A stretch of DNA of 64,000 nt, from positions 1,974 through 65,973 of the forward strand of contig JBGPLZ010000002.1 of assembly GCA_041486695.1 (NCBI GenBank), written 5' to 3'. Position 1 is the stretch's first letter; every line of letters starts with the position of its first letter. Origin of the DNA: Acidobacteriota bacterium. Lineage in GTDB: Bacteria; Acidobacteriota; Polarisedimenticolia; Gp22-AA2. This document shows positions 3,631 to 37,658 of this stretch, in pieces. The translations under genes were made by a program, and so were the position numbers. Below the pieces are notes generated by a model. That model saw nothing but the letters and a program-made list of their open reading frames with translations. It did not search any database and had not been told where the DNA came from.

Positions 3631-5235
3631 GTGGGCGGACGATACGATGTCGTGATCGTGGGGGCGGGACACAACGGCCTCGTGGCCGCCGCCTATCTCG
3701 CAGGGGCGGGGCTTCGGACCCTGGTCCTCGAACGCCGGCCGCTCGTCGGCGGCGCCTGCGTCACCGAAGAACTGATCCCGGGTTATCGCTTTTCGACCGC
3801 CTCCTACGTCTGCTCGCTGCTCAGGCCCGAGATCATCGCCGATCTTGGTCTTCGCGAGCATGGCTTTGAGATGCTGCCCTGCCGGGCCTCGTTCACGGCC
3901 TTCCCGGACGGGCGCGCGCTTCTCCTCGGCCTCGACGCGGAGGAGGACGCGCGGCAGATCGCCCGCTTCTCTAATAAGGATGCGGAGGCCTACCCCCGCT
4001 TCAACGCCGCCCTGGCCCGCCTCGCCGATGTCATCCGGCCGACCCTCGCCATGACTCCGCCCGACCCTGCGGCGCCCGGCATGGGCGACCTGCTGCGGCT
4101 GCTGCGCCTGGGCAACCGATTCCGCCGGCTGCCGCGTCCCGATCAGACGCTCCTCATGAAGATGATGACGATGAGCTGCGCCGCGCTCCTGGACGAGTGG
4201 TTCGAGTCGAGCGAGCTCCGAGCCAGCCTGGGCCCCACCAGCACGATTGGAACCTACGGCAGCCCGAGGACCCCGGGGACCGCGTTCATCCTGCTGCATT
4301 ATTACCTCGGCGAGGCGAACGGCTCACCCGGCTCGTGGGGGTTCGTGCGGGGCGGCATGGGAGGGCTCGCCGAGGCGCTGGCCGCCGCGGCCCGCTCGCG
4401 CGGGACGGAGATCAGGGTCGGTGGAGCCGTCGAGCGGATCCTGGTGAAGGGCGGTTCGGCGCGCGGCGTCGTCCTCGAAGGCGGCGAGGAGATCGAGGGC
4501 CGCGTCATCGTTTCCAACGCCGACCCGAAGCGGACCTTCCTGCGCCTCGTCGACCGCGCCGATCTGCCCCCCGAGTTCGTACGCGGGATCGAGACGTTCC
4601 GCTGCGCCGGCAACTCGGCCAAGATCAACCTGGCCGTCTCGGAGCTCCCCGATTTCACCGCGCGGCCCGGAGACGGGCCCCATCTGCGCGGGTCGATCCA
4701 GATCTGCGGGGCGGACGAGAGTTACCTCGAGGCGGCCTTCGATGATTTCAAGGCCGGGCGCCCCTCGCGCAGGCCGTATCTGGAGGTCACGATCCCGTCC
4801 ACGGTCGACGATACGCTCGCTCCTCCCGGACATCACGTGATGTCGATCTCGATGAAGTTCGTGCCGTACCGTCCGGCCACGGGGGACTGGGAGTCGCGCC
4901 GGGAGGAGCTGGGAGATCTGGCGATCGACACGCTCGCCGCCTGCGCTTCGAACTTCCGTCGATCGATACTGTTCCGGCAGGTTCTGACGCCGCGCGATCT
5001 CGAGGCGAGGTTTGGCCTGACCGGCGGGAACATCGGCCATGGCGACATGGCGCTCGACCAACTCTTCGCCATGCGGCCGCTTCTGGGGTGGGCCCGTTAC
5101 CGCACGCCGATCGGCGGTCTCTATCTGTGCGGGGCGGGCACGCATCCCGGTGGAGGGGTGATGGGCGCCTGCGGCCGGAACGCGGCCCGCGAGATTCTCG
5201 TCGACCTGCGCCGCGGCCGGCTCGGGAATTTCTAG
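3631..5235 (+). CDS. Phytoene-desaturase-family NAD(P)/FAD-dependent oxidoreductase (CrtI-like)
   Basis: N-terminal Rossmann dinucleotide motif DVVIVGAGHNGLVAAAYLA. At 534 aa the length fits CrtI-like amine-oxidase-fold proteins. Confidence 0.75.
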   Translation: MGGRYDVVIVGAGHNGLVAAAYLAGAGLRTLVLERRPLVGGACVTEELIPGYRFSTASYVCSLLRPEIIADLGLREHGFEMLPCRASFTAFPDGRALLLGLDAEEDARQIARFSNKDAEAYPRFNAALARLADVIRPTLAMTPPDPAAPGMGDLLRLLRLGNRFRRLPRPDQTLLMKMMTMSCAALLDEWFESSELRASLGPTSTIGTYGSPRTPGTAFILLHYYLGEANGSPGSWGFVRGGMGGLAEALAAAARSRGTEIRVGGAVERILVKGGSARGVVLEGGEEIEGRVIVSNADPKRTFLRLVDRADLPPEFVRGIETFRCAGNSAKINLAVSELPDFTARPGDGPHLRGSIQICGADESYLEAAFDDFKAGRPSRRPYLEVTIPSTVDDTLAPPGHHVMSISMKFVPYRPATGDWESRREELGDLAIDTLAACASNFRRSILFRQVLTPRDLEARFGLTGGNIGHGDMALDQLFAMRPLLGWARYRTPIGGLYLCGAGTHPGGGVMGACGRNAAREILVDLRRGRLGNF

Positions 5236-9314: not shown

Positions 9315-9390
9315 GCACGCATAAGGGCTTTTCCGTCAGCCTCGGGTTCGACATCGGGTGGGGGAACCGGGCGGGGGCCCCGGTTGCGGG
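9315..9390. repeat. Intergenic repeat copy A (short form) of a three-copy element
   Basis: GCACGCATAAGGGCTTTTCCGTCAGCCTCGGGTTCGACATCGGGTGGGGGAACCGGGCGGGGGCCCCGGTTGCGG. It shares the core ...CCGTCAGCCTCG(G/A)GT(T/G)CGACATCGGG(C/T)GGGGGA.CCGGG... with copies at ~19.5 kb and ~22.1 kb but lacks their ~33-bp internal insert. It contains an imperfect inverted repeat (AACCGGG..CCCGGTT). Confidence 0.6.
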
Positions 9391-9514
9391 TTCAGGTCCC
9401 AGCGGGCGACTTCCTGGTCGGCGGGCGGTTGGGGCGCGCAGCCCGTGATGAGCACCAGCCGGCGAGGGGCGATTGAATCCCCATACTTCCTCCAGTGTAT
9501 AGTTTGGCGCGATC

Positions 9515-10855
9515 ATGACCAATGCGCCTGTCACGTCCCGCCCCGCAGGGCCCACCGGCATCCGCTGGCGCATGCTGGCGCTGCTGTTCGCCTCGAGCTT
9601 CGTGGCCTACCTGCTGCGCACCAACATGTCCGTGGCCGGCGAGCAGATGATGGGCGATTTGGGGCTCACGCAAGTGCAGCTGGGCTTGGTGCTGGCGGCG
9701 TTTGCCTGGAGCTACGCGGCGTTTCAGTTTCCCGGCGGCATCTGGAACGAGCGGGTCGGAGGGCGCCGCGCCCTCACCATCATCGCGCTGCTCTGGGGCG
9801 CCTGCAATCTGCTCATCGGGCTGGTGCCCGGCCGCACTCTGGCAACACCTCTGATCATCATGAGTGCGCTCATCGCGCTGCGCGCGCTGATGGGCGCCGC
9901 GCAGGCGCCGCTCTTCCCGGTGACGGGCGCCGCGATGACCTGCGACTGGTTTCCGGTCTCGGGATGGGCGTTCCCCAACGGCTTGAGCAACGCCGGTCTC
10001 ACCCTGGGCGCGGCGGCAACCGGCCCGCTGATCGCCTGGCTCATGGTCAACTTCGGCTGGCGACAGTCGTTCGTGCTGACGGCGCCGCTGGCGTTCGTGC
10101 TGGCCGCGGTCTGGTGGTGGTACGTGCGCGACACGCCGGCGCAGCATCCGCACGTGAGTCACGCCGAGCTCGCGCTCATCGATCGCGATCGACCGGCGAT
10201 ATTCCTGGAGCCGACACCTCCTGGTATGTGGAAGCGCATGCTGAGCGATCCGCAGATTATCCTGCTCACGGCGAGCTACTTCTGCAGCAACTACGTCTTT
10301 TACTTCTTCTTCAACTGGCTGTTCATCTATCTGGTGGATAATCGCGGCTTCAAGGTTCTGGAGAGCGGCACCTACGCGGCGGCGCCGTGGGTCAGCGGCG
10401 CCATCGGCGCGCTGGTTGGCGGCATCGCCTGCGACCACATTTCCATGCGCCTGGGAAAGCGGCGCGGACATCGATGGGTGGCGATGGTCGGTCTCGGGCT
10501 CGGGGGCGTGCTGATCATGGCCGCCGCCGTGGCCACGGCGCCGCTCGTCGCCATCCTGCTGCTGTCGCTCTGTCTGGGGGCGCAGCAGATGACCGAGGCG
10601 GTGTTCTGGTCCGCGGCGATTTCGGTGTCCGGAAAGCATTCGTCGTCGGCATCCGGGGTGATGAACACCGGTGGGAATGTCGTCGGCGGGGTTGGCGCGT
10701 TGCTCGTGCCGTTGACGGTGCGCACGTGGGGATGGCCTGCGGCCCTGGCGACCGGCGCGGCCTTTGCCCTGGTGGGCGCACTGCTGTGGTGCTGGATTCG
10801 CGCCGACCGTGAATTCCCGCCCGCTCCCTCGCCCCTCTGGAGAGCGTCATCCTGA
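9515..10855 (+). CDS. MFS transporter (anion:cation symporter-like, e.g. hexuronate/glucarate type)
   Basis: 446 aa with ~12 predicted hydrophobic helices. The N-terminal region (LLFASSFVAYLLRTNMSVAG ... GGIWNERVGGRRAL) resembles the G-[RK]-x(3)-D-[RK]-x-G-[RK]-[RK] motif typical of MFS loop 2-3. Confidence 0.8.
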   Translation: MTNAPVTSRPAGPTGIRWRMLALLFASSFVAYLLRTNMSVAGEQMMGDLGLTQVQLGLVLAAFAWSYAAFQFPGGIWNERVGGRRALTIIALLWGACNLLIGLVPGRTLATPLIIMSALIALRALMGAAQAPLFPVTGAAMTCDWFPVSGWAFPNGLSNAGLTLGAAATGPLIAWLMVNFGWRQSFVLTAPLAFVLAAVWWWYVRDTPAQHPHVSHAELALIDRDRPAIFLEPTPPGMWKRMLSDPQIILLTASYFCSNYVFYFFFNWLFIYLVDNRGFKVLESGTYAAAPWVSGAIGALVGGIACDHISMRLGKRRGHRWVAMVGLGLGGVLIMAAAVATAPLVAILLLSLCLGAQQMTEAVFWSAAISVSGKHSSSASGVMNTGGNVVGGVGALLVPLTVRTWGWPAALATGAAFALVGALLWCWIRADREFPPAPSPLWRASS

Positions 10856-12024
10856 TGGAGAATCCTGTGGACCGGGCACGCCTGCGGATCGGCCGGCTGG
10901 AGCGGCTGCAAGCCACGATGCGCGCGCAGGGCCTCGAGGCCTGCCTGCTGTTCAATGAACCGAACGTCCGTTACGCGACCGGCGCCTCGGCGATGCCGAT
11001 CTGGAGCAACACGACGTTCGTCCGCTGCGCCCTGGTCCCCGCCGAGGGGCGGCCAATCCTCTTCGAGCACCCGAACTCGATGCACCTGTTCCGGGGCATC
11101 GAGGCCGAGGTGCGGCCGATGCACGCCTGGGAGTTCTACGACGACACGGCGGCGCACGCCGCGATCTTCGCCCGGCAGACAGTCGCCGCGCTGCGCGAGC
11201 TCGGCGTCTCCTCGAGCCGGCTCGCCGTCGACCGGCTGGGAACGCCCGGGTTCCTCGCCCTCCAGCGCGAAGGGATCGCGATCGTCGACTCGGCGCCGGT
11301 CACGACCGTGGCCCGCGAGATTAAGACCCCCGAGGAGGTCGCCCTGTTCGAGCTGAACGCCGCGATCCTGATGGAGATGCTGGCCAATCTCGAGCGCGCC
11401 ATCGCGCCCGGGGTCCGCGAGCGCGAGCTGCTGGCCATCCTGGCGGACACGCTGCTGCGGCACGGCGGCGAGCACCTCGCCACCAGCACCGTCTGCTCCG
11501 GCCCGAACACCAACCCGTGGCGCGCCGAGGCGACCGCGCGCGCCATCGAACCCGGCGACCTGGTCTACGTCGACACCGACACCATCGGCGTCGAGGGCTA
11601 CTTCTTCTGCGTGTCGCGCACCTTCCTGTGCGGCGATCGCCCTGCGACCCCCGCGCAACGCGACGCGTACCGCACCGCGCACGACTGGCTGCTCGGGTTG
11701 CGGGAGATGGTCCGGCCCGGCATCACCTGCCGCGAGCTCGCCGCCAAGGCGCCGCGACTTCCCCGCAGGTTCATGCCGCAGCGTTACGAGGTCATGATCC
11801 ACAGCGTCGGCCTTGAAGAGGAAAGCCCGAGCGTCGCCTACCCCGACGACCCGCAGCCGAACGGCGATCGCGTCCTGCAGGAGAACATGGCCCTCGTCGT
11901 GGAGCTCTACTGCGGCGAAGTCGGCGGCCGGGATGGCGTCAAGATCGGCGACCAGGTGCTGGTGACGTCCGAGGGCGTGAAGATGCTGGTGCCGTACCCC
12001 TACTGCGATACCCTGCTCCGATAA
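10855..12024 (+). CDS. M24-family metallopeptidase (Xaa-Pro aminopeptidase / creatinase-type)
   Basis: Start overlaps the upstream stop. A creatinase-like N-terminal domain is followed by a pita-bread fold region (YVDTDTIGVEGYFFCVSRTF ... HSVGLEEE). Confidence 0.7.
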   Translation: MENPVDRARLRIGRLERLQATMRAQGLEACLLFNEPNVRYATGASAMPIWSNTTFVRCALVPAEGRPILFEHPNSMHLFRGIEAEVRPMHAWEFYDDTAAHAAIFARQTVAALRELGVSSSRLAVDRLGTPGFLALQREGIAIVDSAPVTTVAREIKTPEEVALFELNAAILMEMLANLERAIAPGVRERELLAILADTLLRHGGEHLATSTVCSGPNTNPWRAEATARAIEPGDLVYVDTDTIGVEGYFFCVSRTFLCGDRPATPAQRDAYRTAHDWLLGLREMVRPGITCRELAAKAPRLPRRFMPQRYEVMIHSVGLEEESPSVAYPDDPQPNGDRVLQENMALVVELYCGEVGGRDGVKIGDQVLVTSEGVKMLVPYPYCDTLLR

Positions 12025-12050
12025 GCGTCCGCGGAGACGGCTCGGTAACG

Positions 12051-13322
12051 ATGAAAATCCTGGCGCTGAACTGCGGCTCCACCTCGGTCCGTTTTCGGCT
12101 CATCGAAACCGATCGAAGGCGCATGGCGCGGGACGCGGACCGGCACCTGGCTGGAGGGAAGCTCGAGGCGATCGGGGGCGACTCGTCGGTCGCGTTCCAG
12201 GTCGAAGGCCGTCCGGTTCCGCCGGCGAAGGTCCGCCTCCGCGACCACCGCGAGGCGATCGCGCTGATCCTGGACTGGCTGATCTCCGGGAGCCCAGCTG
12301 GAGGCCTGCTGCGCTCCCGCTCCGATCTTGACGCGGCCGGCCATCGCGTCGTGCACGGCGGCGCCGGCTTCAGCGATCCGGTGCGCATCGACCCCGCGGT
12401 GGTCGCGGCGATCGAAGCGTGCGCCGATCAGGCCCCGCTCCACAATCGCCCGACCCTTCTCGGCATCCGGGCCACGCTGCAACTCCTCGGCCCGGCGGTG
12501 CCTCAGGTCGCGGTGTTCGACACGGCGTTCCACCGCACCATGCCCGAGTCGTCCTATCTGTACGCTCTGCCTTACGAGATCTCCGCGAAGCATGGGATAA
12601 GACGCTACGGCTTCCACGGCACGTCACATCAGTACATCGCCCTGCGGTACCGGCGGCTCCGCCGGCTGCGGACCAGGGACGTGCGGATCATCTCCCTGCA
12701 TCTGGGCGGGGGAAGCTCAGCGTGCGCCATCCGGGAGGGCAAGTCGCTCGACACCTCGATGGGGTTCACGCCGCTCGAGGGTCTGGTCATGGCGACTCGC
12801 TGCGGCGATCTCGACCCGGCGATTCCCCTGTTCCTGGCGCGCCGCACCGGCGCCACGCCGGCCGAGATCGAGGCGATGCTGGTCAGCCGCTCCGGGCTCC
12901 TCGGCCTGTCCGGAACGAGCTCGGACATGCGGACCCTCCTCGAGCTGAAGCGGCACGATCCGCGCGCGCTCCTGGCGATCGAGATCTTCTGCAGGCGGGT
13001 CAGGAAATACATCGGCGCCTATTTCGCCGACATGGGAGGCGCCGACGCGATCGTCTTCACCGGGGGAATCGGAGAGAATGCGCCCGAGATCCGCCGACGG
13101 ACCTGTCGCGGCCTGGAAAGCCTGGGGTTGCGACTCGACCAGGGCCGGAACCGGCGGCTGGTCGCGGGCGCCGAGGGGGAAATCAGCCGCAGGGGCTCGA
13201 CCCTGAGGGCCTACGTGATCCCGACCGACGAGGAATTGATAATCGCGCGCCAGACGGCGCGCCTGCTCGACCGACCCCGACCGACCGGTCCGGGTCTGGC
13301 TGGAGGTTCACCATCGCCATGA
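12051..13322 (+). CDS. ackA: Acetate kinase (acetate/propionate kinase family)
   Basis: N-terminal signature MKILALNCGSTSVRFRL (compare canonical LVLNCGSSSIK). Length 423 aa. Sits directly upstream of phosphoketolase. Confidence 0.8.
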   Translation: MKILALNCGSTSVRFRLIETDRRRMARDADRHLAGGKLEAIGGDSSVAFQVEGRPVPPAKVRLRDHREAIALILDWLISGSPAGGLLRSRSDLDAAGHRVVHGGAGFSDPVRIDPAVVAAIEACADQAPLHNRPTLLGIRATLQLLGPAVPQVAVFDTAFHRTMPESSYLYALPYEISAKHGIRRYGFHGTSHQYIALRYRRLRRLRTRDVRIISLHLGGGSSACAIREGKSLDTSMGFTPLEGLVMATRCGDLDPAIPLFLARRTGATPAEIEAMLVSRSGLLGLSGTSSDMRTLLELKRHDPRALLAIEIFCRRVRKYIGAYFADMGGADAIVFTGGIGENAPEIRRRTCRGLESLGLRLDQGRNRRLVAGAEGEISRRGSTLRAYVIPTDEELIIARQTARLLDRPRPTGPGLAGGSPSP

Positions 13323-15676
13323 CACGCTCCGAGGCCGAAGCGATCGCCCTCTACCGCCGCGCCGTCAACTATCTGTCCGCCGCCCAGATCTATCTGAAGT
13401 CGAATCCGCTGCTTGAGGAGCCGCTGCGGCCCGAGCAGATCAAGGATCGCCTCCTCGGGCACTGGGGCACCGCGCCCGGCATCAACTTGATCTACGCCCA
13501 CCTCAACCGACTCATCCTGAAAACCGGCGCCAGCGTTCTACTCGTGACCGGCCCCGGCCACGGCGCGGCCGCGAATCTTGCGAACCTGTACCTCGAAGGG
13601 AGCCTGGGCGAGTTCTACCCTTCCATGACGCAGGATCGCGTTGGACTGCTGCGCTTCGTGCGGGCCTTCTCGTGGCCCGACGGCTTCCCGAGCCACCTCA
13701 GCCCCGCCCTGCCGGGCGTCATCCATGAGGGCGGCGAGCTGGGGTATGCGCTGGCGACCTCCTTCGGCGCCGCCCTCGACAACCCCGACCTGATCGTCGC
13801 CTGCATCGTCGGCGACGGCGAAGCCGAGACGGGGCCGACGGCGACCGCCTGGCACGGGACGAAGTTCCTCAATCCGGCGACCGATGGCGCGGTGCTCCCC
13901 TTCCTGCACCTGAACGGATTCAAGATCGCCTCGCCGACGCTGTTCGGGACGATGGATGACGGCGAGCTCGCCGCGCTCTTCTCGGGCTGCGGGTGGAACG
14001 TTCGCATCGTCGACTACGGCGAGGAGATCGACGGCGACCTGGCCTCTGCCGTGGAGAGCGCCCATGCCTCGATTCGCGCGCTGCAGGCGGAGGCGCGGGC
14101 CGGACGCTGCCCCAAGCGCCCGCGCTGGCCGCTGATCATCCTGCGCACGCCGAAGGGGATGAGCGGCCCGGTCGAGATCGATGGCAAGGCGATCGAGGGC
14201 TCGTTCCGCGCCCACCAGGTGCCGGCGAAAGATCTGAAGACCGACCCGCGGCATCTCGCGGTCGTGGAGCGGTGGCTACGCTCCTACCGCCCCGAGGAGC
14301 TGTTCGATCGGCAGGGCCGTCCGGTCGAAGCGATCCGCGCTCTCTGCCCGCGGGGAACGCAGCGGATGGCGATGAACCCGCACGCCAACGGAGGCCGCAT
14401 CCGGCGGCCTCTCGACCTCCCCGAGCTTCGGGATCACGCGGTCGACGTACCGGTGCGGGGCGCGCAGGCTTGCAGCAGCATGGAAGTGGCCGGCCGCTAT
14501 CTCGCGCAGGTGGTGGAGCGCAATCAGCGGACTCGGAATTTCCGCATCGTCTGCCCTGACGAGCTCGAATCGAACCGCCTCGGCGCCGTCCTCGACGTGA
14601 CGCTCCGCCAGTACCTCTGGCCCACCCCCGCGGTCGCCGAGAAGATCGGGCCCGACGGCCGCGTGCTCGAAGTCTTGAGCGAGCACAGCTGCCAGGGCTG
14701 GCTGCAGGGCTACCTCCTGACCGGACGGCACGGCCTCTTCCCCTGCTACGAGGCGTTCCTGCCGATCGTCGACGGCATGATGAACCAGTACGCCAAGTTC
14801 CTGAAGACATCCCTCGAGGTCCCGTGGCGGGCCCCCGTCTCTTCGCTGAACTATATCCTCACCTCCGAGGCCTGGAGACAGGACCACAATGGCTATTCTC
14901 ATCAGGGGCCCGGCTTCATCAACAACGTCCTGACGAAGAAGGGCCACACCTATCGCATTCTCCTGCCGCCCGACGCCAACTGCCTGCTGTCGACGCTTGA
15001 CACCTGTCTCCAATCGACGAACCACATCAACCTGATCATCGCCGGCAAGCAGCCGATGCCGCAGTGGCTGTCGATGGCGGAGGCGATCGAGCATTGCCGC
15101 GTCGGCGCCTCGGTCTGGCCGTGGGCCAGCACCAACGACGGCGAGGACCCGGAGCTGGTGCTGGCCGGATGCGGCGACACGCTGACCGTCGAGGTCCTGG
15201 CGGCGGCCCGGATCATCCGCACGGTGGCGCCCGAGTGGCGGGTGCGCGTGGTCAACGTTGTTGATCTGCAAATTCTGGGCGTCCCCGAGAAATACCCGCG
15301 CGGCCTGGAGGAAGAGCGCTTCCAGCGCCTCTTCCCGCTCGACGCACCCGTCCTCGTCAACTATCATGGCTACACTGCCGCCATCAAGCAGCTGGTCTGG
15401 GAACGGCCGGCAAACAGCCGGTTCGACATCAACGGATATCGCGAGGAGGGAACGACGACCACGCCGTTCGACATGCTGGTGCGCAACCGGACGAGCCGCT
15501 ACGACCTCGTCATCCAGGCGGCCCGCGTGATGGCGGCCCGGCACCACCAAGTGGCGGCCCGGGCCGAGGAGATGACTCGCCTCTGCGAAGCCAGGCTCGC
15601 CGCGCACCGCGACTTCATCCGCCTGCACGGGATCGACCTGCCCGAGATCGTCGACTGGACCTGGGCCGAACCGTAG
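13319..15676 (+). CDS. xfp: Xylulose-5-phosphate/fructose-6-phosphate phosphoketolase
   Basis: The ATG overlaps the ack stop (ATGA). Phosphoketolase signatures HEGGELGYAL and NPDLIVACIVGDGEAETG (thiamine-PP binding). 785 aa. The ORF-track frame runs in-frame upstream to 12419, but that extension overlaps ack and was rejected. Confidence 0.85.
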   Translation: MTRSEAEAIALYRRAVNYLSAAQIYLKSNPLLEEPLRPEQIKDRLLGHWGTAPGINLIYAHLNRLILKTGASVLLVTGPGHGAAANLANLYLEGSLGEFYPSMTQDRVGLLRFVRAFSWPDGFPSHLSPALPGVIHEGGELGYALATSFGAALDNPDLIVACIVGDGEAETGPTATAWHGTKFLNPATDGAVLPFLHLNGFKIASPTLFGTMDDGELAALFSGCGWNVRIVDYGEEIDGDLASAVESAHASIRALQAEARAGRCPKRPRWPLIILRTPKGMSGPVEIDGKAIEGSFRAHQVPAKDLKTDPRHLAVVERWLRSYRPEELFDRQGRPVEAIRALCPRGTQRMAMNPHANGGRIRRPLDLPELRDHAVDVPVRGAQACSSMEVAGRYLAQVVERNQRTRNFRIVCPDELESNRLGAVLDVTLRQYLWPTPAVAEKIGPDGRVLEVLSEHSCQGWLQGYLLTGRHGLFPCYEAFLPIVDGMMNQYAKFLKTSLEVPWRAPVSSLNYILTSEAWRQDHNGYSHQGPGFINNVLTKKGHTYRILLPPDANCLLSTLDTCLQSTNHINLIIAGKQPMPQWLSMAEAIEHCRVGASVWPWASTNDGEDPELVLAGCGDTLTVEVLAAARIIRTVAPEWRVRVVNVVDLQILGVPEKYPRGLEEERFQRLFPLDAPVLVNYHGYTAAIKQLVWERPANSRFDINGYREEGTTTTPFDMLVRNRTSRYDLVIQAARVMAARHHQVAARAEEMTRLCEARLAAHRDFIRLHGIDLPEIVDWTWAEP

Positions 15677-15760
15677 CCGAAGACCCGGTAGGTGCGGATC
15701 GGCGTTGAGGCTCGGCGGCAGGATCGCGATCCGGGCTCGCGGGTGCCCGTCTCGTGAGCT

Positions 15761-16051
15761 TCAGTGTTCCGTGTGCGACGTATGGGTCACCTCCGGCGAG
15801 GGGGACTCCTTCTCGAGCGACTTCACAAACGTCCCCCGCGCGGCCTCGGCGGCCCGGTCGTAGATCTCGCCCAGAGCGGATGGCATGCGTGACGCCTTCT
15901 CGCGGGCCTGCCGCAGGGCGGTTCCGAGCCGCTCGCGCGTCTCCTTGCCGGTGCGCGGAGCCGTGAGAAGCGCCGCCACCGCGCCGGTCGCGGCACCCGC
16001 CAGGAACGCCAGGAAAATCTGCACCCCTCGACCTTCTATGTTGTTACTCAT
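15761..16051 (-). CDS. YtxH-domain general-stress-like small membrane-associated protein
   Basis: Internal ATG start with a strong SD (GGAGGTG). Hydrophobic N-terminal helix (IFLAFLAGAATGAVAALLTAP), then a charged helical region (GKETRERLGTALRQAREKA) typical of YtxH/DUF883-like proteins. Confidence 0.5.
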   Translation of the reverse strand: MSNNIEGRGVQIFLAFLAGAATGAVAALLTAPRTGKETRERLGTALRQAREKASRMPSALGEIYDRAAEAARGTFVKSLEKESPSPEVTHTSHTEH

Positions 16052-16532
16052 GATGGTGTGCCACCTCCTTCGGTTGGAACTGGGCCAGGTCAGGCTGGAG
16101 GCTCCGCGGCCGATACGGCGCCGCTGCCTCCGGCTCTGCTCGGACGGACTCATTTCGATCTCCCGCTGCCCCGGCCGGGGGCGCAAAGATCGCGCGCACG
16201 GCCGCAACCATCGCCGGTCCTACGGCGCCGCCGAGGGTGGCGATCGGCCGGATCATGCCCTGGAGCCGCAGGGCCATCCGCCCGAGGTTGGCCGCCGCCT
16301 CGATGTGCGGCCGGAGACCCTCCAAATCCTGTTCGGCACGGGCGACGACCTGGTCGACACGGCCCGCGGCGTTGGTGACCTCGGCAAGCGCCCGTTCGAG
16401 GCGCTGGTCGGCGTTCGTAAGAATGGTTCGGGCGCTCCGCAACACCCTCTGGAGCTGGTAAAGAACCGGGAGCGCGGCGCCCACGAGGACCGCGATCAGG
16501 ACGACGATGGCGATCTGCGCTCCTTCCGTCAC
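16044..16532 (-). CDS. DUF948-like membrane/coiled-coil stress protein
   Basis: GTG start with a perfect SD (AAAGGAGGTG, 4-nt spacer). N-terminal TM helix (QIAIVVLIAVLVGAALPVLYQL) followed by a long helical region. Its stop overlaps the start of the downstream YtxH gene by 8 nt, suggesting translational coupling. Confidence 0.5.
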   Translation of the reverse strand: MTEGAQIAIVVLIAVLVGAALPVLYQLQRVLRSARTILTNADQRLERALAEVTNAAGRVDQVVARAEQDLEGLRPHIEAAANLGRMALRLQGMIRPIATLGGAVGPAMVAAVRAIFAPPAGAAGDRNESVRAEPEAAAPYRPRSLQPDLAQFQPKEVAHHHE

Positions 16533-16726
16533 GGGGCACCTCCTTTGGATGACCGGCCAGGCCACCCCCGGTCTCACGGGCAGCTCCCGGCAAACGGCCC
16601 CTGCCATTTATCTTTGCAAGAGCCCTGCCACGCGGGCGCTGCCTTGATGAGAGCGGCGCTTCGATGGCGAGGCGGCACTTCGCCGGCGAGGTGCAGATTC
16701 TACGTAGGGCGGCGGGAGGAGCGCCT

Positions 16727-18211
16727 CTACAGGCCGAACATTTGCCGGTTCTTGCGGAAGTGGTGGCCGTAGATGGCGAAGGTGACGGCCAGCGGGAAGA
16801 GATCGCGGCGGCGGAGCATCGTCCAGGAGAGCAGGCCCCAGTAGTGGAATCGTTCGCGGCCGATGACGCCGAGGCGCAGGCTGGCGTGGGTGAACGCCAT
16901 GACGTGCATGAAGCTCAGCGACTCGGCCGCCTTCCTCGGGCGATAGTCGCGCAGGAAAGTGCGGACCCGCCGGTAGTACGGGGCGGGGGCGTAGATGCCG
17001 CGCAGGATGCTCCGGTAGCCCTCGCGCACCGTGTCCATGCTCATGCGCGGGATCAGGTTCATCGTGCCGTCCACGTTGTTGCCGCTCGTCTGACCGAGCA
17101 GCCGGCCTTCGCGTTCCATCCGGGCGTGGAGCTTCGTGCCCGGGAGCGCATTCAGCAGTCCGACCATGGCGGTGACGATGCCGCTCTTCTGGATGAAATC
17201 CACCTGCCGCTGGAATGTCGTCGCCGTATCGCTGTCGAAGCCGACGATGAACCCCCCCTGAACCTGAAGCCCGGCGCGCTGCATCCGTTTCACGTCGGCG
17301 ACCAGGTCTCGGCCGCGGTTCTGGCGCTTGTTGCATTCCGCGAGACCTTCCTCGTCGGGCGTTTCGATGCCCACGAACACGGAGTCGAACCCCACCTCGA
17401 CCATCTGCCGCATCAATGTCTCGTCGTCGGCGAGGTTGATCGACGCTTCGGTGTAGAAGGTGATGCCGTGCTTGCCCCGCTGCCAGGCGATCAAGGCGGG
17501 CAGCAGCGCTGCCTGGAGATCCCGCTTGTTACCGATGAGATTGTCGTCCACGAAGAAGATCTGGCCGCGCCAGCCGAGCCCGTAGAGACGATCCAGCTCG
17601 GCGATGATCTGCGCCGGCGTCTTGGTGCGCGGGCGGTGTCCGAACATCGCAGTGACGTTGCAAAATTCGCAATCGAACGGGCAGCCGCGCGAATACTGGA
17701 TACTCATCGAGGCGTACTTGTTCAGATCGGCGAGCTCCCAGGACGGTGCGGGCGTCCGGTGAAGGTCGGGGAACTCCGCCGAGGCGTACAGTCGCCGCGC
17801 GCAGCCGCGATCGAGATCGCGCAGGAACGGGGCGAGCGTGACCTCGGCTTCGTTCAGGACGAAGTGGTCGACCTCGGGAAACTGCTCGTGCTCGGAGATG
17901 AACAGCGGCCCGCCCGCGACGATCCGCTTGCCCGCCGCCCGGCATCGCGCGATCAGCTGGCGCGCCGAGTCCCGCTGGGCGGCCGTGGCGCCGACGAGGA
18001 CGATGTCGGCCCACTTCAGATCGGCCCGGGTGAGTTTCCGCACGTTCGTGTCGACGAGCCGCAGCACCCAGTCCCCGGGCAGCATCGCGGCGACGGTCAG
18101 GAGCCCCAGCGGCGGCAGGGTCGCTCGCTTGTGGATGAACTTCAGCGCGTGCTTGAAGCTCCAGAACGTGTCCGGGAACTCGGGGTAAAGGAGCAGGGCC
18201 TTTGTCTTCAT
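16727..18211 (-). CDS. B12-binding domain-containing radical SAM protein (class-B radical SAM, DUF4070-type; HpnP/HpnR/BchE-like architecture)
   Basis: N-terminal cobalamin-binding-like domain (ADIVLVGATAAQR). Radical SAM cluster motif CPFDCEFCNV. Length 494 aa. Confidence 0.75.
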   Translation of the reverse strand: MKTKALLLYPEFPDTFWSFKHALKFIHKRATLPPLGLLTVAAMLPGDWVLRLVDTNVRKLTRADLKWADIVLVGATAAQRDSARQLIARCRAAGKRIVAGGPLFISEHEQFPEVDHFVLNEAEVTLAPFLRDLDRGCARRLYASAEFPDLHRTPAPSWELADLNKYASMSIQYSRGCPFDCEFCNVTAMFGHRPRTKTPAQIIAELDRLYGLGWRGQIFFVDDNLIGNKRDLQAALLPALIAWQRGKHGITFYTEASINLADDETLMRQMVEVGFDSVFVGIETPDEEGLAECNKRQNRGRDLVADVKRMQRAGLQVQGGFIVGFDSDTATTFQRQVDFIQKSGIVTAMVGLLNALPGTKLHARMEREGRLLGQTSGNNVDGTMNLIPRMSMDTVREGYRSILRGIYAPAPYYRRVRTFLRDYRPRKAAESLSFMHVMAFTHASLRLGVIGRERFHYWGLLSWTMLRRRDLFPLAVTFAIYGHHFRKNRQMFGL

Positions 18212-18483
18212 ATCAACAGGCTACGCCTCAGCGCGAGGAAATGGAAGCGGGCGCGCCAACCCTTCCGCACGGCGGGCCGGGGGGCACAGCCCGCCCGCCG
18301 CGCGGACCTTCCCGACCATACCTCGACTCGGAAGAGGCGCGCGGCCGGATGAAGATTCCGCCTGAGATTTAGACGAGCAGCACCGTGTCGCCGAGAAGGT
18401 CAAGGCGCGCGTCGAGGCCTCCGGGAAGTGGAAGCGCCCGATCACGACACTGATTCGCGGCATGGAGCGGCCGGCGCGCCTCC

Positions 18484-19305
18484 TCAGTGCAGCCCTCTGG
18501 GGAGGGTGACGGTGATCGCGGCGGAATTGTTCGAGTAGTCGGTCTCCTGGAAGAAATGTTCGGCGTTGACTTCGACCTCGAGGATGTAGTCACCCGCCGA
18601 CAGCCCGGTGACATCGATCCACTGGCCGTCGAACCACGCGGCGTAGAAATCGGCCTGGCAGACGCTCAGCCCCATGTCGTCGCAGGAGAAGTACCTGGGG
18701 CGATCCTTGCTGCCGGCGCAGACACCCTGCGTGTAGTGATAGACATCCACGACGCAGAACCCCTGCTTCCTGCCGGTGACGAGCTTCTTCGCCAGGTTCG
18801 GGTTGGCCACCAGGAGGTCGCGCGCGCATGAGGTCGGGTTCGTCTGGCGAAGGGCGAGCCATTGCGCGTAGTCCTTCGGAGTCCAGAGACGGTAATCGGA
18901 GTACTCCTTGAAGTGCGTGTGCCCGTGGCAGGTCACGAAGTCGAACCACTCGGGGTGATCCGTCGGCTTGCCGATGATCAAATCGCCCGGGCCGAGGTTA
19001 GGGGTAGCGGTGTCGAACCGTAGTAACCAGCGGTCGCCTGCGGTCACTTCCCCCTCGGCGACGGAGCAATCGGTCGAGGTCCAGGTCTCCTTGTTCAGTG
19101 CCAGGTTGGGGGGAATCTCCGAGCCGTCGACGATCAGGTCGGGACAGCCGTTCTTGTCGGAGCACGGGATGGCGGGCACGCAGGTCGTCTGGGTCTGAGC
19201 GGACGACGGGCGTGCAGCGGCGAAACCCCCGAACAGAACAAGCATCGAAACAAACACGACCCTGCAGAGAAGAGAGCGATCCAAGTCACACCTCCTGGGC
19301 GACAC
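18484..19305 (-). CDS. Secreted lysyl-oxidase-like (copper amine oxidase, LOX catalytic-domain family) protein
   Basis: His-rich copper-site-like segment FVTCHGHTHFKEY resembles the LOX WxWHxCHxHYH motif. Many conserved Cys, consistent with the LOX disulfide pattern. N-terminal signal-like region. The start is GTG at 19305; an alternative ATG lies at 19245 (MLVLFGG). Confidence 0.55.
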   Translation of the reverse strand: MSPRRCDLDRSLLCRVVFVSMLVLFGGFAAARPSSAQTQTTCVPAIPCSDKNGCPDLIVDGSEIPPNLALNKETWTSTDCSVAEGEVTAGDRWLLRFDTATPNLGPGDLIIGKPTDHPEWFDFVTCHGHTHFKEYSDYRLWTPKDYAQWLALRQTNPTSCARDLLVANPNLAKKLVTGRKQGFCVVDVYHYTQGVCAGSKDRPRYFSCDDMGLSVCQADFYAAWFDGQWIDVTGLSAGDYILEVEVNAEHFFQETDYSNNSAAITVTLPRGLH

Positions 19306-19520
19306 GCAATGGGTGTCAGTTGCGCCCGGACCCGTGTTCGACGGGACGATTCACTGCGCGCGGCGAGAGAGCTGAAAAAGATATACGGCCAAATGGCGCG
19401 CCGGTCAACGGCTTTCGCGCCGTTCCTCTCGGCGTTCGCCGTCGAAGGCTCGCGGGTCGGCAGCTTGCCGAAAGGCGGTCGCTGGCGCACCCGATTTCCA
19501 CCGGCGCGCCCACAGAGTAA

Positions 19521-19600
19521 GCGCATAGGAAGTTCAAGCTGAGATTTTAGGTCCGATAAGTTCTATTCCATCAGCCTCGGGTTCGACATCGGGCGGGAGA
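19521..19600. repeat. Intergenic repeat copy B (long form)
   Basis: GCGCATAGGAAGTTCAAGCTGAGATTTTAGGTCCGATAAGTTCTATTCCATCAGCCTCGGGTTCGACATCGGGCGGGAGA. It is about 93% identical to copy C over ~75 bp. It lies between the TonB-receptor stop and the lysyl-oxidase-like start. Confidence 0.65.
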
Positions 19601-19745
19601 GGCGCGCCCCGGCGTCAGCGCTCGTCACCGACTTCTCCCAGAGATCGGCAAACCGCTTCCGGCTCGACGAGAACGCGATGAGTCCGCAGCAGCAGGGTCG
19701 GGATCATGAGATAGGCGCCCTCGACGAGGTACCGTGCGGCCACGC

Positions 19746-22073
19746 TCAGTAATTCCACCGGATCCCCGTGCGTAAGCTCCGCGTCGGCGCTGGATAACTC
19801 ATGATGGTCGGCTCGAGAGAAGGCCCCGGCGAAATCGTCGTCCGGGGGGTGATGAAACCGCTCGTCGAGTACCTCCGATCCAGGAGGTTCGCCCCGGCCA
19901 CGAACAGTTCCAGCTGTCGCCACCGATATCCCATCTGTGCGTCGAGGGTCGCGTAGGACTCAATGGCATGCTCGTTGGTGTCGTCCATGAACTGGCGTCC
20001 CACCGCCCGGAACACCACGCTCCCGAGCCAGCCCTTGCCGACACCGAACCGGAGACCGAGGCTCCCCAGGTGACGGGGAACGAAGATGATCTGCTTTCCC
20101 GGGGCCTCACCGCTTTCGTGCGTCGCGTCCTGAAGCGTGTAGTTCAGGAACCCGTCCAGCCCCGGACGGAAGTGACCGGTGAGCGACAGTTCTGCACCCC
20201 GATGCTGACTCCGGCCGATGTTGTTGAACTGGAAAGCGACCGGATCGAACTCGATCTCGTTCCGGAGTCTCATAGAGTAGACGGAGACCTGGAGATCGGC
20301 GCGCTGAGCGAAAGCCTGCCGGATGCCGATCTCGTAGTCGGTGGACTTCTGGGGCTTCAGGTCGCTGTTGGACAGACTGGCGCCGAATGGACTCCGCTCG
20401 TCGAAGAGCTGCTCCAGGGTCGGTGCGCGGAAGCCTCCGCCCGCCTGGATGAACAGGTCGCCATCCGTGCGGTAGGACCACGTCATGCCGAGCTTCGGCG
20501 ATACGGCGTTGTTGTCCGAGGCGCGCCTTCCGCCCCCGGCGACCCGTTCCGTGAACTCGTCGTCGAAGCGGTCGTACCGGGCCCCGAGGGAGAAGCCGAG
20601 CGGTCCCACGTCGGAGATCTGGTCCTGGAAATAAAGCCCGTACACCCGGCGGGAGCCGCTCCCGTCGGCGACAACCGTCCCCGGGACGCCGTCGTTCACC
20701 GACTGGTAGCGGCTGTCGAGATGACCGGCGCTGGCCTCCGCCCCGGCAAGGAGTCGGTGCTTCGCACCGTTCCACTGCACGGGATGCTCGAACCGGCCCT
20801 GGAGCCCGGTGATCCGGCCCTCCAGGGCCTGTTTCTTCACGTCGAACAGCGGCACGAGAACCCCGCCGATCTGCATCTCCAGCGGCAGCGTCAGCACTTG
20901 GTCCGAGTCCTTGCGCCGGTGGAAAAGGTCGAGGAACCATCCGGTCCCTCCGTCCAGCTGATATTGATACTTAACGCCGAACAAGTTCCGGCGCTGATCC
21001 CATCCATCGAACGGGTAGCCGGCCTGGGCGCGGTCGGTCTCGAGCTGCTGCTGGGAGAGAGGTCCCGGGGTCTCGTTCTCCAGCCAGTGGTTGAGGGTCG
21101 ATACGGTGAGGCTCGAGCGGCGACCGAGTTCGACCCGAACACGTCCGGTCAAGGAGTCACTGGACCATGCGCTCCGCGCCCGGTACCCGTCCAGCTCGCG
21201 ATGAAAGCCAGAGACGGCGTAGGTCATCCTGGAGGAGCCACCGCGGTGATCGACGCCGACCTCCTGATCTCCGAAGGAGCCGCCAGCGGAGGAGAGGGAG
21301 GTGATCGAGCCGGCACGAAGAGGCTCCGTGAGCACGTTCACCACGCCTCCCAGGCTCATGTCGCCGTAAAGCGCCGAGCCGGGACCTCGCTGGACCTCCA
21401 CCTGCCAGATCTGATCGGTGGGCAGGAGGTTCCAGTCCACGAGGGCCGAGTCGATGTCGTTCACCGGCATCCCGTCCACGAGGACGAGCAGGTAGCTGGA
21501 GAATCCTCCTCCGGTGATCCCACGGGGGTCAAGCCCGAAATCGAGTGGGTTGCCCCACGCGGTGAAGCTGTTGAGGCCAGTCATCGTGGCCAGGGCATCG
21601 GCCAGGTTGGCCGTCGGGGTCGTCGACAGGTCCCGTCGATCCAAGACCGTGACGTTGCCCGGGACATCGGACAGCCGGGTCTCGGTGCGGGTCGCGGTCA
21701 CCACCACGTACTCCCTCAGGGTGAGTATGGCGGGACGCAGCTCGACCTCTGTCTGCGGGAGGGGGATCTCCGGGCCCGAGAGCTTCCGGGTCTCGTAGCC
21801 ATCCGCCCTCACCACGAGCACCTCTCCGGGTCGCGGGGCCCGCGGCAGACGGAAGCGGCCGTCGGCATCCGTGGTGGCGGCGACACCGCCTCCTTCGATT
21901 TCGACGCGGGCCCCGCCGATCGCGACGCCCGTGACTGCGTCCATCACTCGGCCCTCGATCCCCTCCTCCTGGGTCCAAGCAGGTGGCGCGCCCCCGAGCA
22001 GGTCCGACCCGGAGGCAGCCAGGAACAGGCCGCCCGTCAACAAGCGCGCACACAAGAATTTACCCATGCACAT
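19746..22073 (-). CDS. TonB-dependent receptor with an N-terminal carboxypeptidase-regulatory-like domain
   Basis: Signal peptide. CarbopepD_reg-like segment (GRVMDAVTGVAIGGARVEIEGGGVAATTDADGRFRL). Plug and beta-barrel with a C-terminal aromatic residue (...IRWNY). I placed the start at the ATG at 22073, which has a G-rich SD (AAGGGGGG) 7 nt upstream; the track ORF extends to the GTG at 22112. Confidence 0.8.
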   Translation of the reverse strand: MCMGKFLCARLLTGGLFLAASGSDLLGGAPPAWTQEEGIEGRVMDAVTGVAIGGARVEIEGGGVAATTDADGRFRLPRAPRPGEVLVVRADGYETRKLSGPEIPLPQTEVELRPAILTLREYVVVTATRTETRLSDVPGNVTVLDRRDLSTTPTANLADALATMTGLNSFTAWGNPLDFGLDPRGITGGGFSSYLLVLVDGMPVNDIDSALVDWNLLPTDQIWQVEVQRGPGSALYGDMSLGGVVNVLTEPLRAGSITSLSSAGGSFGDQEVGVDHRGGSSRMTYAVSGFHRELDGYRARSAWSSDSLTGRVRVELGRRSSLTVSTLNHWLENETPGPLSQQQLETDRAQAGYPFDGWDQRRNLFGVKYQYQLDGGTGWFLDLFHRRKDSDQVLTLPLEMQIGGVLVPLFDVKKQALEGRITGLQGRFEHPVQWNGAKHRLLAGAEASAGHLDSRYQSVNDGVPGTVVADGSGSRRVYGLYFQDQISDVGPLGFSLGARYDRFDDEFTERVAGGGRRASDNNAVSPKLGMTWSYRTDGDLFIQAGGGFRAPTLEQLFDERSPFGASLSNSDLKPQKSTDYEIGIRQAFAQRADLQVSVYSMRLRNEIEFDPVAFQFNNIGRSQHRGAELSLTGHFRPGLDGFLNYTLQDATHESGEAPGKQIIFVPRHLGSLGLRFGVGKGWLGSVVFRAVGRQFMDDTNEHAIESYATLDAQMGYRWRQLELFVAGANLLDRRYSTSGFITPRTTISPGPSLEPTIMSYPAPTRSLRTGIRWNY

Positions 22074-22128
22074 CAGCCTACCCCCCTTTCTTCCGCCGGC
22101 CCCTCGATCCACCCAGGGCTGACGCGCG

Positions 22129-22230
22129 GGCGCATAGGAAGTTCAAGCTGAGATTTTAGGTCCGATAAGGGCTATTCCGTCAGCCTCGAGTGCGACATCG
22201 GGCGGGGGACCGGGTTGCGGCCCGATGTAG
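22129..22230. repeat. Intergenic repeat copy C (long form) with an embedded stem-loop
   Basis: GCGCATAGGAAGTTCAAGCTGAGATTTTAGGTCCGATAAGGGCTATTCCGTCAGCCTCGAGTGCGACATCGGGCGGGGGACCGGGTTGCGGCCCGATG. The perfect inverted repeat CATCGGGC...GCCCGATG is a 8-9-bp stem around a 16-nt loop. It lies 56 nt upstream of the TonB-receptor start. Confidence 0.65.
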
Positions 22231-29009: not shown

Positions 29010-29280
29010 GGCCGCCGGACTCCGGTGGCGGCGTTGCGAATATTGCGTGGCGGTTTCCATCGTTCGGCAATTCTTGCGCCCGATGCATGATTTGCAGGAT
29101 GATAAGAGAGTTTCCGCCCGCTGCTTCGAGACAATTCGACCGCCTGCCAGAGAGGCTAATTGGGCCATAAATGCAGGGAAACGCCGTCCTCCGGTCGGCT
29201 GGAGTCGCCGAGGCCATCATTTTGGCGTGCGGTTTGCTCAGGGGGCAGTCGGGTCCACCTCCGGAGAAGGAGCGAGGAAT

Positions 29281-32748: not shown

Positions 32749-32781
32749 GCGATGCGACACCAGGACATCATTGGAGGGACA

Positions 32782-33615: not shown

Positions 33616-33830
33616 TTCGAGAACTGAGTGAACCCGGCGAGAAGGGAATGGCCTCCATCCCCTTCTCGCCTTTTGCGGCCATCCCTTCCTCCACCCTCCG
33701 CGCCATCGCGAGATGGTACAATTCCGCTTCTTGCGATCCTCCGCGCTGGCCGGGACTTTTGAGACGCAACTCCGGCCGCCCGGGCCATCCCACCTTCGAT
33801 CCATGGCTGAAACATGTGGCGGGCGGAATC

Positions 33831-35027: not shown

Positions 35028-35064
35028 TCCGAAAGATGCCCCGGAGTCTGCCCCTCGAGATCCC

Positions 35065-35601: not shown

Positions 35602-35611
35602 AGGCGGGACT

Positions 35612-37639: not shown

Positions 37640-37658
37640 TGCGCGCGCCAGGATCGCC

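Follow-up and report, generated by a model that had tools for sequence, protein, structure and literature searches.

A rare, low-copy intergenic repeat in an acidobacterial lineage that may carry a promoter

Introduction

A 64-kb stretch of acidobacterial DNA (hereafter the window) holds a short non-coding sequence that recurs in several intergenic gaps, and this raises the question of what kind of element it is and whether it acts on the genes beside it. An earlier note on this DNA proposed a REP/MITE-like element, a small RNA, or a shared regulator-binding or leader element. After weighing these options and others, we tentatively favor a duplicated or captured promoter segment, a so-called putative mobile promoter read on the minus strand, to which we would assign a probability of roughly two in five.

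Results and Discussion

The three-copy repeat is confirmed. Copies of roughly 80-120 bases lie on the plus strand at 9317-9390 (copy A), 19521-19612 (copy B) and 22130-22220 (copy C), where none is expected by chance, in agreement with the places and the strand given in the earlier note. The 23-nt core TCAGCCTCGRGTKCGACATCGGG occurs three times in the window and not once in 100 shuffles, and a 33-nt AT-rich stretch occurs twice against zero expected. In the copy alignments pairwise identity reaches 92.5% over 80 nt between B and C, matching the ~93% over ~75 bp first reported for the long forms, 86.7% over 60 nt between A and C, and 82.7% over 52 nt between A and B. B and C show six differences, all within the 40 nt on the right, and are identical in the 40 nt on the left. 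An nhmmer profile built from the copies detected no further diverged copy within the window, and the three copies fall within 13 kb, with none in the remaining 50 kb.

B and C represent a long form and A a short one, the difference being an internal 31-nt block, GGAAGTTCAAGCTGAGATTTTAGGTCCGATA, flanked by ATA at both ends, which is the additional long-form sequence described before and is present in B and C and absent from A. The short copy retains the left terminal ACGCATA, the core and the G-rich 3' part, and copy C carries a 12-nt deletion in the G-rich part. According to a motif search, the G-rich part of A contains a motif of G-quadruplex type, GGGTGGGGGAACCGGGCGGGGG (9356-9377, plus strand); it is shared by a copy found outside the window and lost in B and C. 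The AT-rich module, read on the minus strand at 19528-19558 in B and 22137-22167 in C, is the most conserved part of the repeat, and substitutions avoid it, which suggests constraint.

Gene calls by GC3, together with Pfam, place all three copies between genes, as had been claimed. Copy A is located between two plus-strand genes, a 92-aa gene and an MFS transporter gene (9515-10855), for which a separate TTGAAT-N19-TATAGT site lies at 9473-9503, beyond the copy. Copy B lies between two minus-strand genes, in the gap between the stop of a TonB-dependent receptor gene (19746) and the start (~19283) of a lysyl-oxidase-like gene (18484-19283). Copy C also lies between two minus-strand genes, in the gap between the stop of an MMPL gene (22306) and the start of the same TonB-receptor gene (19746-22073), which has B and C on either side. 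The gaps of 232 and 462 nt are long, given that the window is ~92% coding. The single plus-strand orientation irrespective of gene direction, also pointed out before, was seen in all three copies.

A single soil-metagenome contig (L059/L060) provided a fourth copy, 88-94% identical, which precedes a malate synthase-isocitrate lyase operon. This copy shares 88% identity with C over 100 nt and 94.3% with A over 70 nt, and the similarity with A may extend to ~9410; no DNA similarity past the ends of the element was seen between the window and this contig. The metagenome that yielded it contains one intact core in total, while no true copies were detected in 185,579 species-representative genomes and none were found in viral contigs, plasmids or phages. 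Likewise, no copy turned up in ~200 kb of sequence from close relatives with orthologous genes at 84-93% identity, and the element is absent from both the malate synthase and the MFS loci of relatives. Judging from the source names of homologues, the relatives of this lineage belong to Candidatus Polarisedimenticolia. The refuting condition set in the earlier note, an element confined to its three places in the window, is borne out in part: exactly one copy lies outside the window, and relatives and species-representative genomes have none. On the sequences searched, the repeat is rare, low-copy and restricted to one lineage.

At the malate synthase locus of the metagenome contig the gene itself is ~93-95% identical in DNA to that of relatives, and homology ends ~72 nt upstream of the ATG. 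The element starts ~15 nt beyond this point and occupies the place of a motif, CGTTGTAGACT, which is present upstream of this gene in 11 related loci. The gap between this copy and the gene upstream of it contains a terminator-like hairpin. In every relative examined, synteny is broken in the regions around the element. The metagenome contig also harbors a second, unrelated private repeat family, likewise local and same-strand.

An action as RNA could take two forms, either a small RNA or cis element built on a plus-strand core hairpin, UUCCGUCAGCCUCGG...UCGGGUGGGGGAA, or an element inside an MMPL-TonB receptor-lysyl oxidase transcript. The stems reported earlier exist as described in C, where CATCGGGC (22196-22203) pairs with GCCCGATG (22220-22227), and in A (AACCGGG/CCCGGTT), but they differ from copy to copy and are not shared; that of C (22196-22227) is absent from the other copies and arose beside the 12-nt deletion. 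RNAalifold does propose an irregular 12-pair hairpin in the plus-strand core, and two substitutions fit G-U pairing (G-U to A-U and G-U to G-C). Nevertheless, no pair of this hairpin changed on both sides and all shuffle controls equaled the observed value, in a comparison of four sequences with no statistical power. One of its pairs is broken in B, the hairpins downstream vary among copies, and the AT-rich module, conserved above all other parts, is unstructured. Single-sequence folds of every copy on both strands were no better than those of shuffled sequences (z -0.9 to +0.9). The search of Rfam suggested in the earlier note gave no match over the window at gathering scores, and permissive thresholds brought chance-level matches only, elsewhere than in the element. 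A promoter and terminator pair was not found on either strand of the element, nor was a credible plus-strand promoter or a terminator. Both forms of RNA action, taken together, are very improbable.

The copies were also inspected for the marks of mobile elements. The two ends, CATAGGAAGTTC on the left and ...CCGGGTTGCGGG on the right, lack complementarity, and no inverted-repeat pair involves the copies. No target duplication was seen at the aligned boundaries, although the right boundary is fuzzy and leaves room for a duplication of 2-3 nt. No palindrome of 20-40 nt is shared by the copies, their stems being copy-specific, and no transposase, integrase, recombinase or RAYT domains were detected among the window genes scanned against Pfam. 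In the light of these absences and of few, locally clustered copies, the REP/MITE-like option finds no support. Thus the REP, MITE and small-RNA readings are unsupported, because there is no Rfam match, folding is at shuffle level, and compensatory changes, terminal repeats, target duplications and, among the scanned window genes, a transposase were all not found.

Comparison with known families points the same way. REPs are imperfect palindromes of 20-40 nt, present in high copy number and mobilized by RAYT transposases; the element resembles REP, REPIN and BIME sequences in being short, repeated and intergenic, but has no shared palindrome, four known copies and no RAYT found in the window. 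Correia elements of Neisseria number in the hundreds, end in inverted repeats and duplicate a TA target, and the ERIC sequences of enterobacteria, with tens to hundreds of copies, are built around a large inverted repeat in the center. Their size (~100-150 nt), intergenic location, long and short forms produced by internal indels and possible promoter activity recall the present repeat, whereas terminal or central inverted repeats, the TA duplication and a high copy number were not seen here. In the miniature elements derived from IS200/IS605 (PATEs) neither terminal inverted repeats nor target duplications are expected, nor were any seen here, and a strand-biased orientation like that of our copies is expected; however, each end of a PATE must have a conserved subterminal hairpin, and the left end must in addition have a conserved target of four or five nucleotides, while here the hairpins are copy-specific, the left boundary shares only CATA, and neither TnpA nor TnpB was found in the window.

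A broader possibility is a neutral or selfish low-copy repeat, either a decaying small non-autonomous element or the end of a larger one, without a role for the host. Unrelated genes adjoin the sequence in two different contigs, and its size variants result from the loss of inner parts at short direct repeats, namely of the 31-nt module in A and of 12 nt in C. All window copies occupy one strand, as single-strand transposition of the IS200/IS605 kind would predict, and the metagenome copy lies ~15 nt from a homology breakpoint with relatives, whose malate synthase and MFS loci do without the element; the similarly arranged second repeat family of that contig fits as well. Against this explanation stand the terminal inverted repeats, target-site duplication and conserved terminal hairpins that were looked for and not seen, the missing transposase, integrase or RAYT among the Pfam-scanned window genes, and the scarcity of copies (four in all, one intact core in the metagenome, none in the species-representative genomes). 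The confinement of the window copies to 13 kb and the sparing of the AT-rich module by substitutions, which argues for constraint, also count against it. We consider a neutral repeat, in which any promoter-like hexamer would be incidental, possible though rather unlikely.

The copies might also be recombination scars or att-like sites, at which segments inserted into a pre-existing copy and left flanking direct repeats, with B and C around the TonB-receptor gene or A and B around a 10-kb block. B and C are direct repeats of the same orientation enclosing that single gene, its nearest homologue is just 63% identical and found in another gene context, and synteny breaks around the element in every relative examined. 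On the other hand, the GC3 of the TonB-receptor gene (0.82) is within the range of the window, B and C share just 92.5% identity, the Pfam scan of window genes gave no recombinase or integrase, neither a tRNA nor a typical att core is present, and the metagenome contig has a single copy. Such an origin is quite improbable.

The minus strand of the module provides a different clue. It reads TAAAAT in B (19549-19544) and C (22158-22153), and TATAAT in the metagenome copy, this being the one base of the module at which that copy differs from B and C. The hexamers of B and C are the only TAWAAT sequences in the 64-kb window on both strands. Each of the three long copies has its hexamer on the coding strand of the next gene and upstream of it, with ~80 nt (C), ~110 nt (metagenome copy) and ~260 nt (B) between the downstream end of the hexamer and the start codon. 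The best -35 candidate, CTGACG (22183-22178 in C), agrees at 4 of 6 positions with a spacing of 19 nt, and in B it is degraded to CTGATG (19574-19569). A relaxed scan for sigma-70-like sites, with spacers of 15-20 nt, returned 10 sites in the window; four of these are intergenic and just upstream of a correctly oriented gene, and copy C is among the four. A standard scan (16-18 nt) detected nothing in any copy.

Based on these features, we hypothesize that an upstream DNA segment was copied to a few intergenic sites, carrying a sigma-70-type core promoter on the minus strand of the window. From the 5' end of that strand, the segment would consist of a variable G/C-rich stretch (about -95 to -55), a 45-nt core including the weak -35-like CTGACG, a 19-nt spacer, the -10 box TA(A/T)AAT within the AT-rich module and, last, ~25 conserved bases of the initial transcript (CTCAGCTTGAACTTCCTATG); we infer that transcription starts within the element, whereas the repeat, its anatomy, rarity and orientation to genes, and the exchange of the upstream motif in the metagenome contig are observed. 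Copy C would drive the TonB-receptor gene and the metagenome copy the malate synthase-isocitrate lyase operon, while copy B, which precedes the lysyl-oxidase-like gene, is possibly a promoter that has been weakened or is secondary. Copy A may be a decayed version, inert as a promoter, whose -10 module would have been lost by deletion between the ATA repeats. The regulator-binding or leader option of the earlier note may therefore survive in a sharper form, that of a promoter-bearing upstream segment on the minus strand.

Several observations favor a promoter. Copy A alone opposes its neighboring genes in orientation, and it is this copy, which lacks the module, from which a promoter would direct antisense transcription into the 3' end of the gene upstream. 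The hexamers found nowhere else in the window and the displacement of the native motif at the malate synthase locus likewise count in favor. The left 40 nt that are identical in B and C include the -10 box and the predicted transcript start, and both the terminator-like hairpin upstream of the metagenome copy and the long gaps of 232 and 462 nt are in accordance with a promoter. Against it, the -35-like hexamer is poor, worse in B, and missed by the standard scan; the native promoter-like boxes of the lineage differ (TGTAnAnT, 9-13 nt from the ATG); the lysyl-oxidase-like gene has a nearer and better-placed site of its own (19408-19378); and there are four copies only. Moreover, the conservation of ~110 nt, including ~25 nt past the predicted start, exceeds the need of a promoter and is equally expected from recent copying.

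The same arrangement could reflect a shared operator, at which one transcription factor binds the module or core and co-regulates the TonB receptor, the lysyl-oxidase-like gene and the glyoxylate shunt. The orientation of the long copies to the genes that follow them is consistent, and the module is invariant between B and C. Promoters activated by MerR-type regulators have long spacers between -35 and -10, which the 19-nt spacing may recall by analogy, and the spacer contains an imperfect dyad, GATAAG-GG-CTATTC. Yet this dyad is weak (4 of 6 positions) and disrupted in B, an identity of ~90% over 80-110 nt goes far beyond what an operator needs, no regulator gene was found nearby among the Pfam-scanned window genes, and the module is, by eye, unlike the Fur box of E. 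coli. In addition, relatives with orthologous malate synthase or MFS genes entirely lack the sequence, and consequently the element does not mark a conserved regulon. A shared operator is accordingly improbable.

A promoter-bearing segment has a counterpart in the putative mobile promoters of Matus-Garcia, Nijveen and van Passel (2012), defined operationally as non-coding DNA that is at least 80% identical over 50 nt or more, at -150 to -50 of the translation start of non-paralogous downstream genes (summarized in PMC3575422). Their families are mostly very small (pairs) with a mean identity of ~92%, some are common to several genomes, no known mobile element is associated with them, and their mechanism of spread is unknown (PMC3575422). 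Our repeat is alike in being similar upstream non-coding DNA in a tiny family, before non-homologous genes and with no known mobile element. Its identities (B-C 92.5% over 80 nt, C-metagenome copy 88% over 100 nt, A-metagenome copy 94.3% over 70 nt) lie within that definition, and the downstream genes are four unrelated ones (TonB receptor, lysyl-oxidase-like, malate synthase and MFS transporter). As to position, copy C (22130-22220) falls within its -50 to -150 region of 22123-22223, and the metagenome copy (12467-12534) lies inside its own; in contrast, B is further upstream, from about -238 to -330, and A is mostly outside the region and inverted relative to its gene. Putative mobile promoters are an operational class and not a mechanism, whereas here a specific -10 box can be identified and in one documented case, at the malate synthase locus, the native upstream motif appears to have been replaced.

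Conclusions

Thousands of low-copy repeated upstream segments have been catalogued already, and the present repeat requires no new mechanism and opens no long-standing question. The element could, with low probability, be an undescribed small promoter cassette of this acidobacterial lineage, one that needs neither inverted repeats nor target duplications to move between intergenic sites and genomes, inserts where rearrangements have joined DNA, and rewires the expression of genes, the glyoxylate-shunt operon among them; in that event, the second repeat family of the metagenome contig would hint at a general mechanism of the lineage for copying intergenic DNA. If the repeat is indeed a captured promoter segment, it would show cleanly how promoters are reused or captured in nature, here by an acidobacterial lineage that is uncultured. 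A segment of ~110 nt would supply transcription signals to unrelated genes, and in one genome it has apparently taken the place of the conserved motif native to the region upstream of the malate synthase-isocitrate lyase operon, so that regulation would be rewired without gene transfer.

Copies of the element and their genomic context

The three copies placed in the window by the earlier note, A (9317-9390, a short form) and the long forms B (19521-19612) and C (22130-22220), were confirmed by sequence inspection and by a repeat finder, which reports the element as family D2, with three copies, and the long pair B-C as family D4, with 93% identity over 80 nt. Shuffled sequences are expected to hold none of the 23-nt core common to all copies, found three times in the window, and none of a 33-nt AT-rich stretch found twice. 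Every copy lies on the + strand, in agreement with the single orientation already described.

Gene calls were based on third-position GC plus Pfam. A VKOR/thioredoxin protein is encoded at 6684-8951 (+), and copy A is located between a 92-aa gene (+, ending at 9261), the next gene to its left, and an MFS transporter gene to its right (9515-10855, +). The latter is followed by genes for an M24 peptidase, acetate kinase and phosphoketolase, and two small minus-strand genes separate phosphoketolase from a radical-SAM gene (16727-18211, -). Copy B lies between a lysyl-oxidase-like gene (18484-19283, -) and a TonB-dependent receptor gene (19746-22073, -), which is flanked by copies B and C, and copy C lies between the receptor gene and an MMPL gene (22306-24597, -). 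Since A is found between + genes and B and C between - genes, the orientation of A relative to its neighbors is opposite to that of B and C.

Other features of the window were also recorded. The acetate kinase gene is directly followed by that of phosphoketolase (XFP; 12051-15676). The relatives L075, L077 and L078 do not have these two genes downstream of MFS-M24, and to either side of the conserved MFS-M24 pair their gene order is different. A large multihaem c-type cytochrome cluster (28966-42025), with Paired_CXXCH and MtrC/MtrF-like domains and one gene carrying PKD and CarboxypepD_reg domains, explains the internal repeats D1, D9 and D12 reported by the repeat finder. Positions 16509-18323 are matched at 99.9% identity by L001, a Logan contig of 1.8 kb from SRA run SRR35962390, which indicates that the organism of the window was also sequenced in that run. 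Further parts of its genome, or transcripts, may be accessible there.

Anatomy of the element

A metagenome scan found a fourth copy in L059 and L060, two independent assemblies of one soil-metagenome population (99.86% identical), upstream of a malate synthase-isocitrate lyase operon. This copy shows the full-length element, CATAGGAAGTTCAAGCTGAGATT(A/T)TAGGTCCGATAAGGGCTATTCCGTCAGCCTCGGGTTCGACATCGGGTGGGGGAACCGGGCAGGGGACCGGGTTGCGGG, of about 105-125 nt. In copy A the left terminal ACGCATA is retained, as is all sequence from AGGGC on; missing are precisely the 31 nt flanked by two ATA triplets, the AT-rich module, and this copy is therefore regarded as an internal-deletion derivative. In the G-rich part of copy C, 12 nt between ACCGGG repeats have been deleted; the perfect stem formerly attributed to this copy is present, but is formed with sequence adjoining the deletion. 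The G-rich part of copy B has diverged. Pairwise identities are 94.3% over 70 nt (A-L060), 92.5% over 80 nt (B-C), 89.3% over 84 nt (B-L060), 88% over 100 nt (C-L060), 86.7% over 60 nt (A-C) and 82.7% over 52 nt (A-B). B and C are identical over their left 40 nt, all six differences being confined to the right half, and the module of L060 differs from that of B and C by one base.

A canonical G-quadruplex motif (four G-runs, short loops) is found in the G-rich part of copy A (9356-9377) and of the L060 copy (12541-12562), and only three such motifs per strand exist in the whole window. A protein-coding role was rejected: by eye, every frame of the + strand is interrupted by stops within the module, and the ORFs that start on the minus strand from the ATG of the left boundary, of 8, 20, 20 and 130 codons, are not conserved. 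In copy C this ATG begins a 20-codon ORF, MRPRVSPGWIEGPAEERGVG (22073-22135, minus strand), whose TGA overlaps the ATG of the TonB receptor as TGATG; as the equivalent ORFs of the other copies are not conserved, it is probably due to chance.

That the element acts as an RNA, the small-RNA option of the earlier note, drew no support from Rfam, folding or covariation and is very improbable. Rfam gave no match at gathering scores in the whole window, and a permissive search around the copies (E up to 10) returned nothing relevant. Each copy, on both strands, folds no better than dinucleotide shuffles (z -0.9 to +0.9). On the + strand, RNAalifold does propose an irregular hairpin of 12 pairs within the core, in which no pair is changed on both sides, shuffle controls giving the observed values.

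Distribution

A scan of 185,579 species-representative genomes with CAGCCTCGNGTNCGACATCGG returned 55 exact core matches; we estimate that 19 specified bases would match about 70 times by chance. All 55 lack flanking similarity to the element and look fortuitous, and most lie in coding DNA. In Gemmatimonadota and others, 21-25-nt core matches fall in Kbl/BioF-like aminotransferase genes, where they code for SLGFDIG (L002:360-380, L005, L007, L017, L037, L062:1814-1838); lacking flanking similarity, they were judged chance. Other apparently fortuitous matches encode an NWDSLVFDIG stretch in actinobacterial genes. The metagenome scan gave four matches, two being the true L059/L060 copy and two coding. 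Viral contigs yielded none with two patterns, nor did plasmids and phages.

Relatives' loci were retrieved through protein homologues, and the element is absent from those of malate synthase (L063-L074, 84-93% protein identity, one named Candidatus Polarisedimenticolia by NCBI) and of the MFS transporter (L075-L078, 86-88% DNA identity). The search of relatives proposed in the earlier note thus produced no carrier among them, the single outside copy being metagenomic. Apart from the element, L060 and the window have nothing in common; tetranucleotide signatures group the window with all acidobacterial loci (r = 0.97-0.99), a measure blind to the species identity of L060. The family is thus very small: four copies are known, in two genomic backgrounds, and three of them are located within 13 kb of each other. 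Scanning of the entire metagenome behind L060 turned up one intact core, so the L060 genome is expected to contain few copies.

The mobile-element option

The hallmarks expected of the REP/MITE-like element suggested earlier were not found. Neither terminal inverted repeats nor visible target duplications were detected by the repeat finder or in the copy alignments, no transposase, integrase or RAYT domain was found in the window genes scanned against Pfam, and an unfiltered nhmmer profile found no further diverged copies in the window or any fetched locus. Likewise, the testable defining features of MITE, REP/REPIN, ERIC, Correia elements and Rfam families are missing. Among loci compared as filled-versus-empty sites, TonB-receptor relatives (63% identity) are not syntenic, and since upstream neighbors differ in every malate synthase and MFS relative, no clean empty site can be defined.

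A neutral remnant of an uncharacterized small mobile element would account for the indel variants, the same-strand orientation, the relatives without the element and the proximity of the L060 copy to a homology breakpoint; nevertheless, the lack of hallmarks, the very small number of copies and a module under constraint speak against it, and we regard it as unlikely. Recombination scars bracketing inserted genes, as the receptor gene is bracketed by B and C, are a highly unlikely origin.

L060 contains a second low-copy intergenic repeat family (1271-1390, 4346-4466, 7841-7919), with two copies 84% identical over 123 nt and a partial third without the middle part. The local layout matches that of the window element: all copies share one strand and flank single genes, one encoding a Ser/Thr kinase-PD40 protein and another a Kelch-repeat protein. 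No other locus gave a match. Kinship between the families was rejected (alignment z below 1.5), and the GTTCGA-type words common to both are frequent in coding DNA (56 in the window).

A promoter-like box in the module

On the minus strand the module reads CTGACG-N19-TAAAAT-CTCAGCTTGAACTTCCTATG, the hexamer being a perfect TATAAT in L060. Only two TAWAAT hexamers occur in the 64-kb window on both strands, one each in copies B and C, and each of the three long copies has its hexamer upstream of the next gene, on that gene's strand. Copy A, devoid of the module, is precisely the copy that would fire antisense into its neighbor. A standard scan with a 16-18-nt spacer reported no promoter; with the spacer relaxed to 15-20 nt, only ten sigma-70-like sites were found in the window, four of them intergenic and immediately upstream of a gene, namely the 92-aa gene, the MFS gene, the lysyl-oxidase-like gene and, via copy C, the TonB receptor. 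Among other candidates, TCCGATAA resembles the sigma-28-type GCCGATAA, but its -35 spacing is 5 nt off (by eye), and resemblances to sigma-54, ECF-type, Fur-box, IHF and tRNA T-arm sequences were also rejected by eye.

In L060, DNA homology to the relatives (malate synthase DNA about 93-95% identical) breaks off about 72 nt before the ATG, at L060:12456. Just beyond this point, 11 related loci carry CGTTGTAGACT, with the -10-like motif TAGACT (L063:4022-4032, L065:9980-9990, L071:9981-9991, L073:9977-9987, L074:5683-5693, also L066-L070 and L072), and L064 a variant. The motif is kept in the 11 loci despite different upstream genes, only 9-13 nt from the malate synthase ATG in several of them. 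L060 lacks it and instead has about 15 nt of other sequence followed by the TATAAT-bearing element. A terminator-like hairpin is found between the upstream gene and the element.

Discussion

The rare TAWAAT in gene-wise orientation, the motif comparison at L060 and the loss of the module in the antisense copy A lead us to hypothesize that the element may be a reused or captured promoter segment, to which we assign a probability of about 0.4 on these sequence grounds. Against it, the -35 element is weak, the lysyl-oxidase-like gene has a nearer promoter-like site, and the native promoter-like boxes of the lineage differ (TGTAnAnT, 9-13 nt from the ATG). Accommodation as a shared operator, the copies binding a common regulator, is improbable. 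Hence, of the options first raised, the regulatory one survives, the mobile-element and RNA ones being unsupported. Of the known classes, the "putative mobile promoter", defined operationally by Matus-Garcia, Nijveen and van Passel, comes nearest; going by its definition as summarized in PMC3575422, the element shows the identity and the non-paralogous downstream genes of that class, and only copy C and the L060 copy have the position.

Upstream of MFS genes, a similar TGTATAGT is found 9-11 nt from the ATG (window 9496-9503; L077). Taken as sequence patterns, these native motifs suggest that the lineage may use a TGTAnAnT -10-type box and near-leaderless mRNAs.
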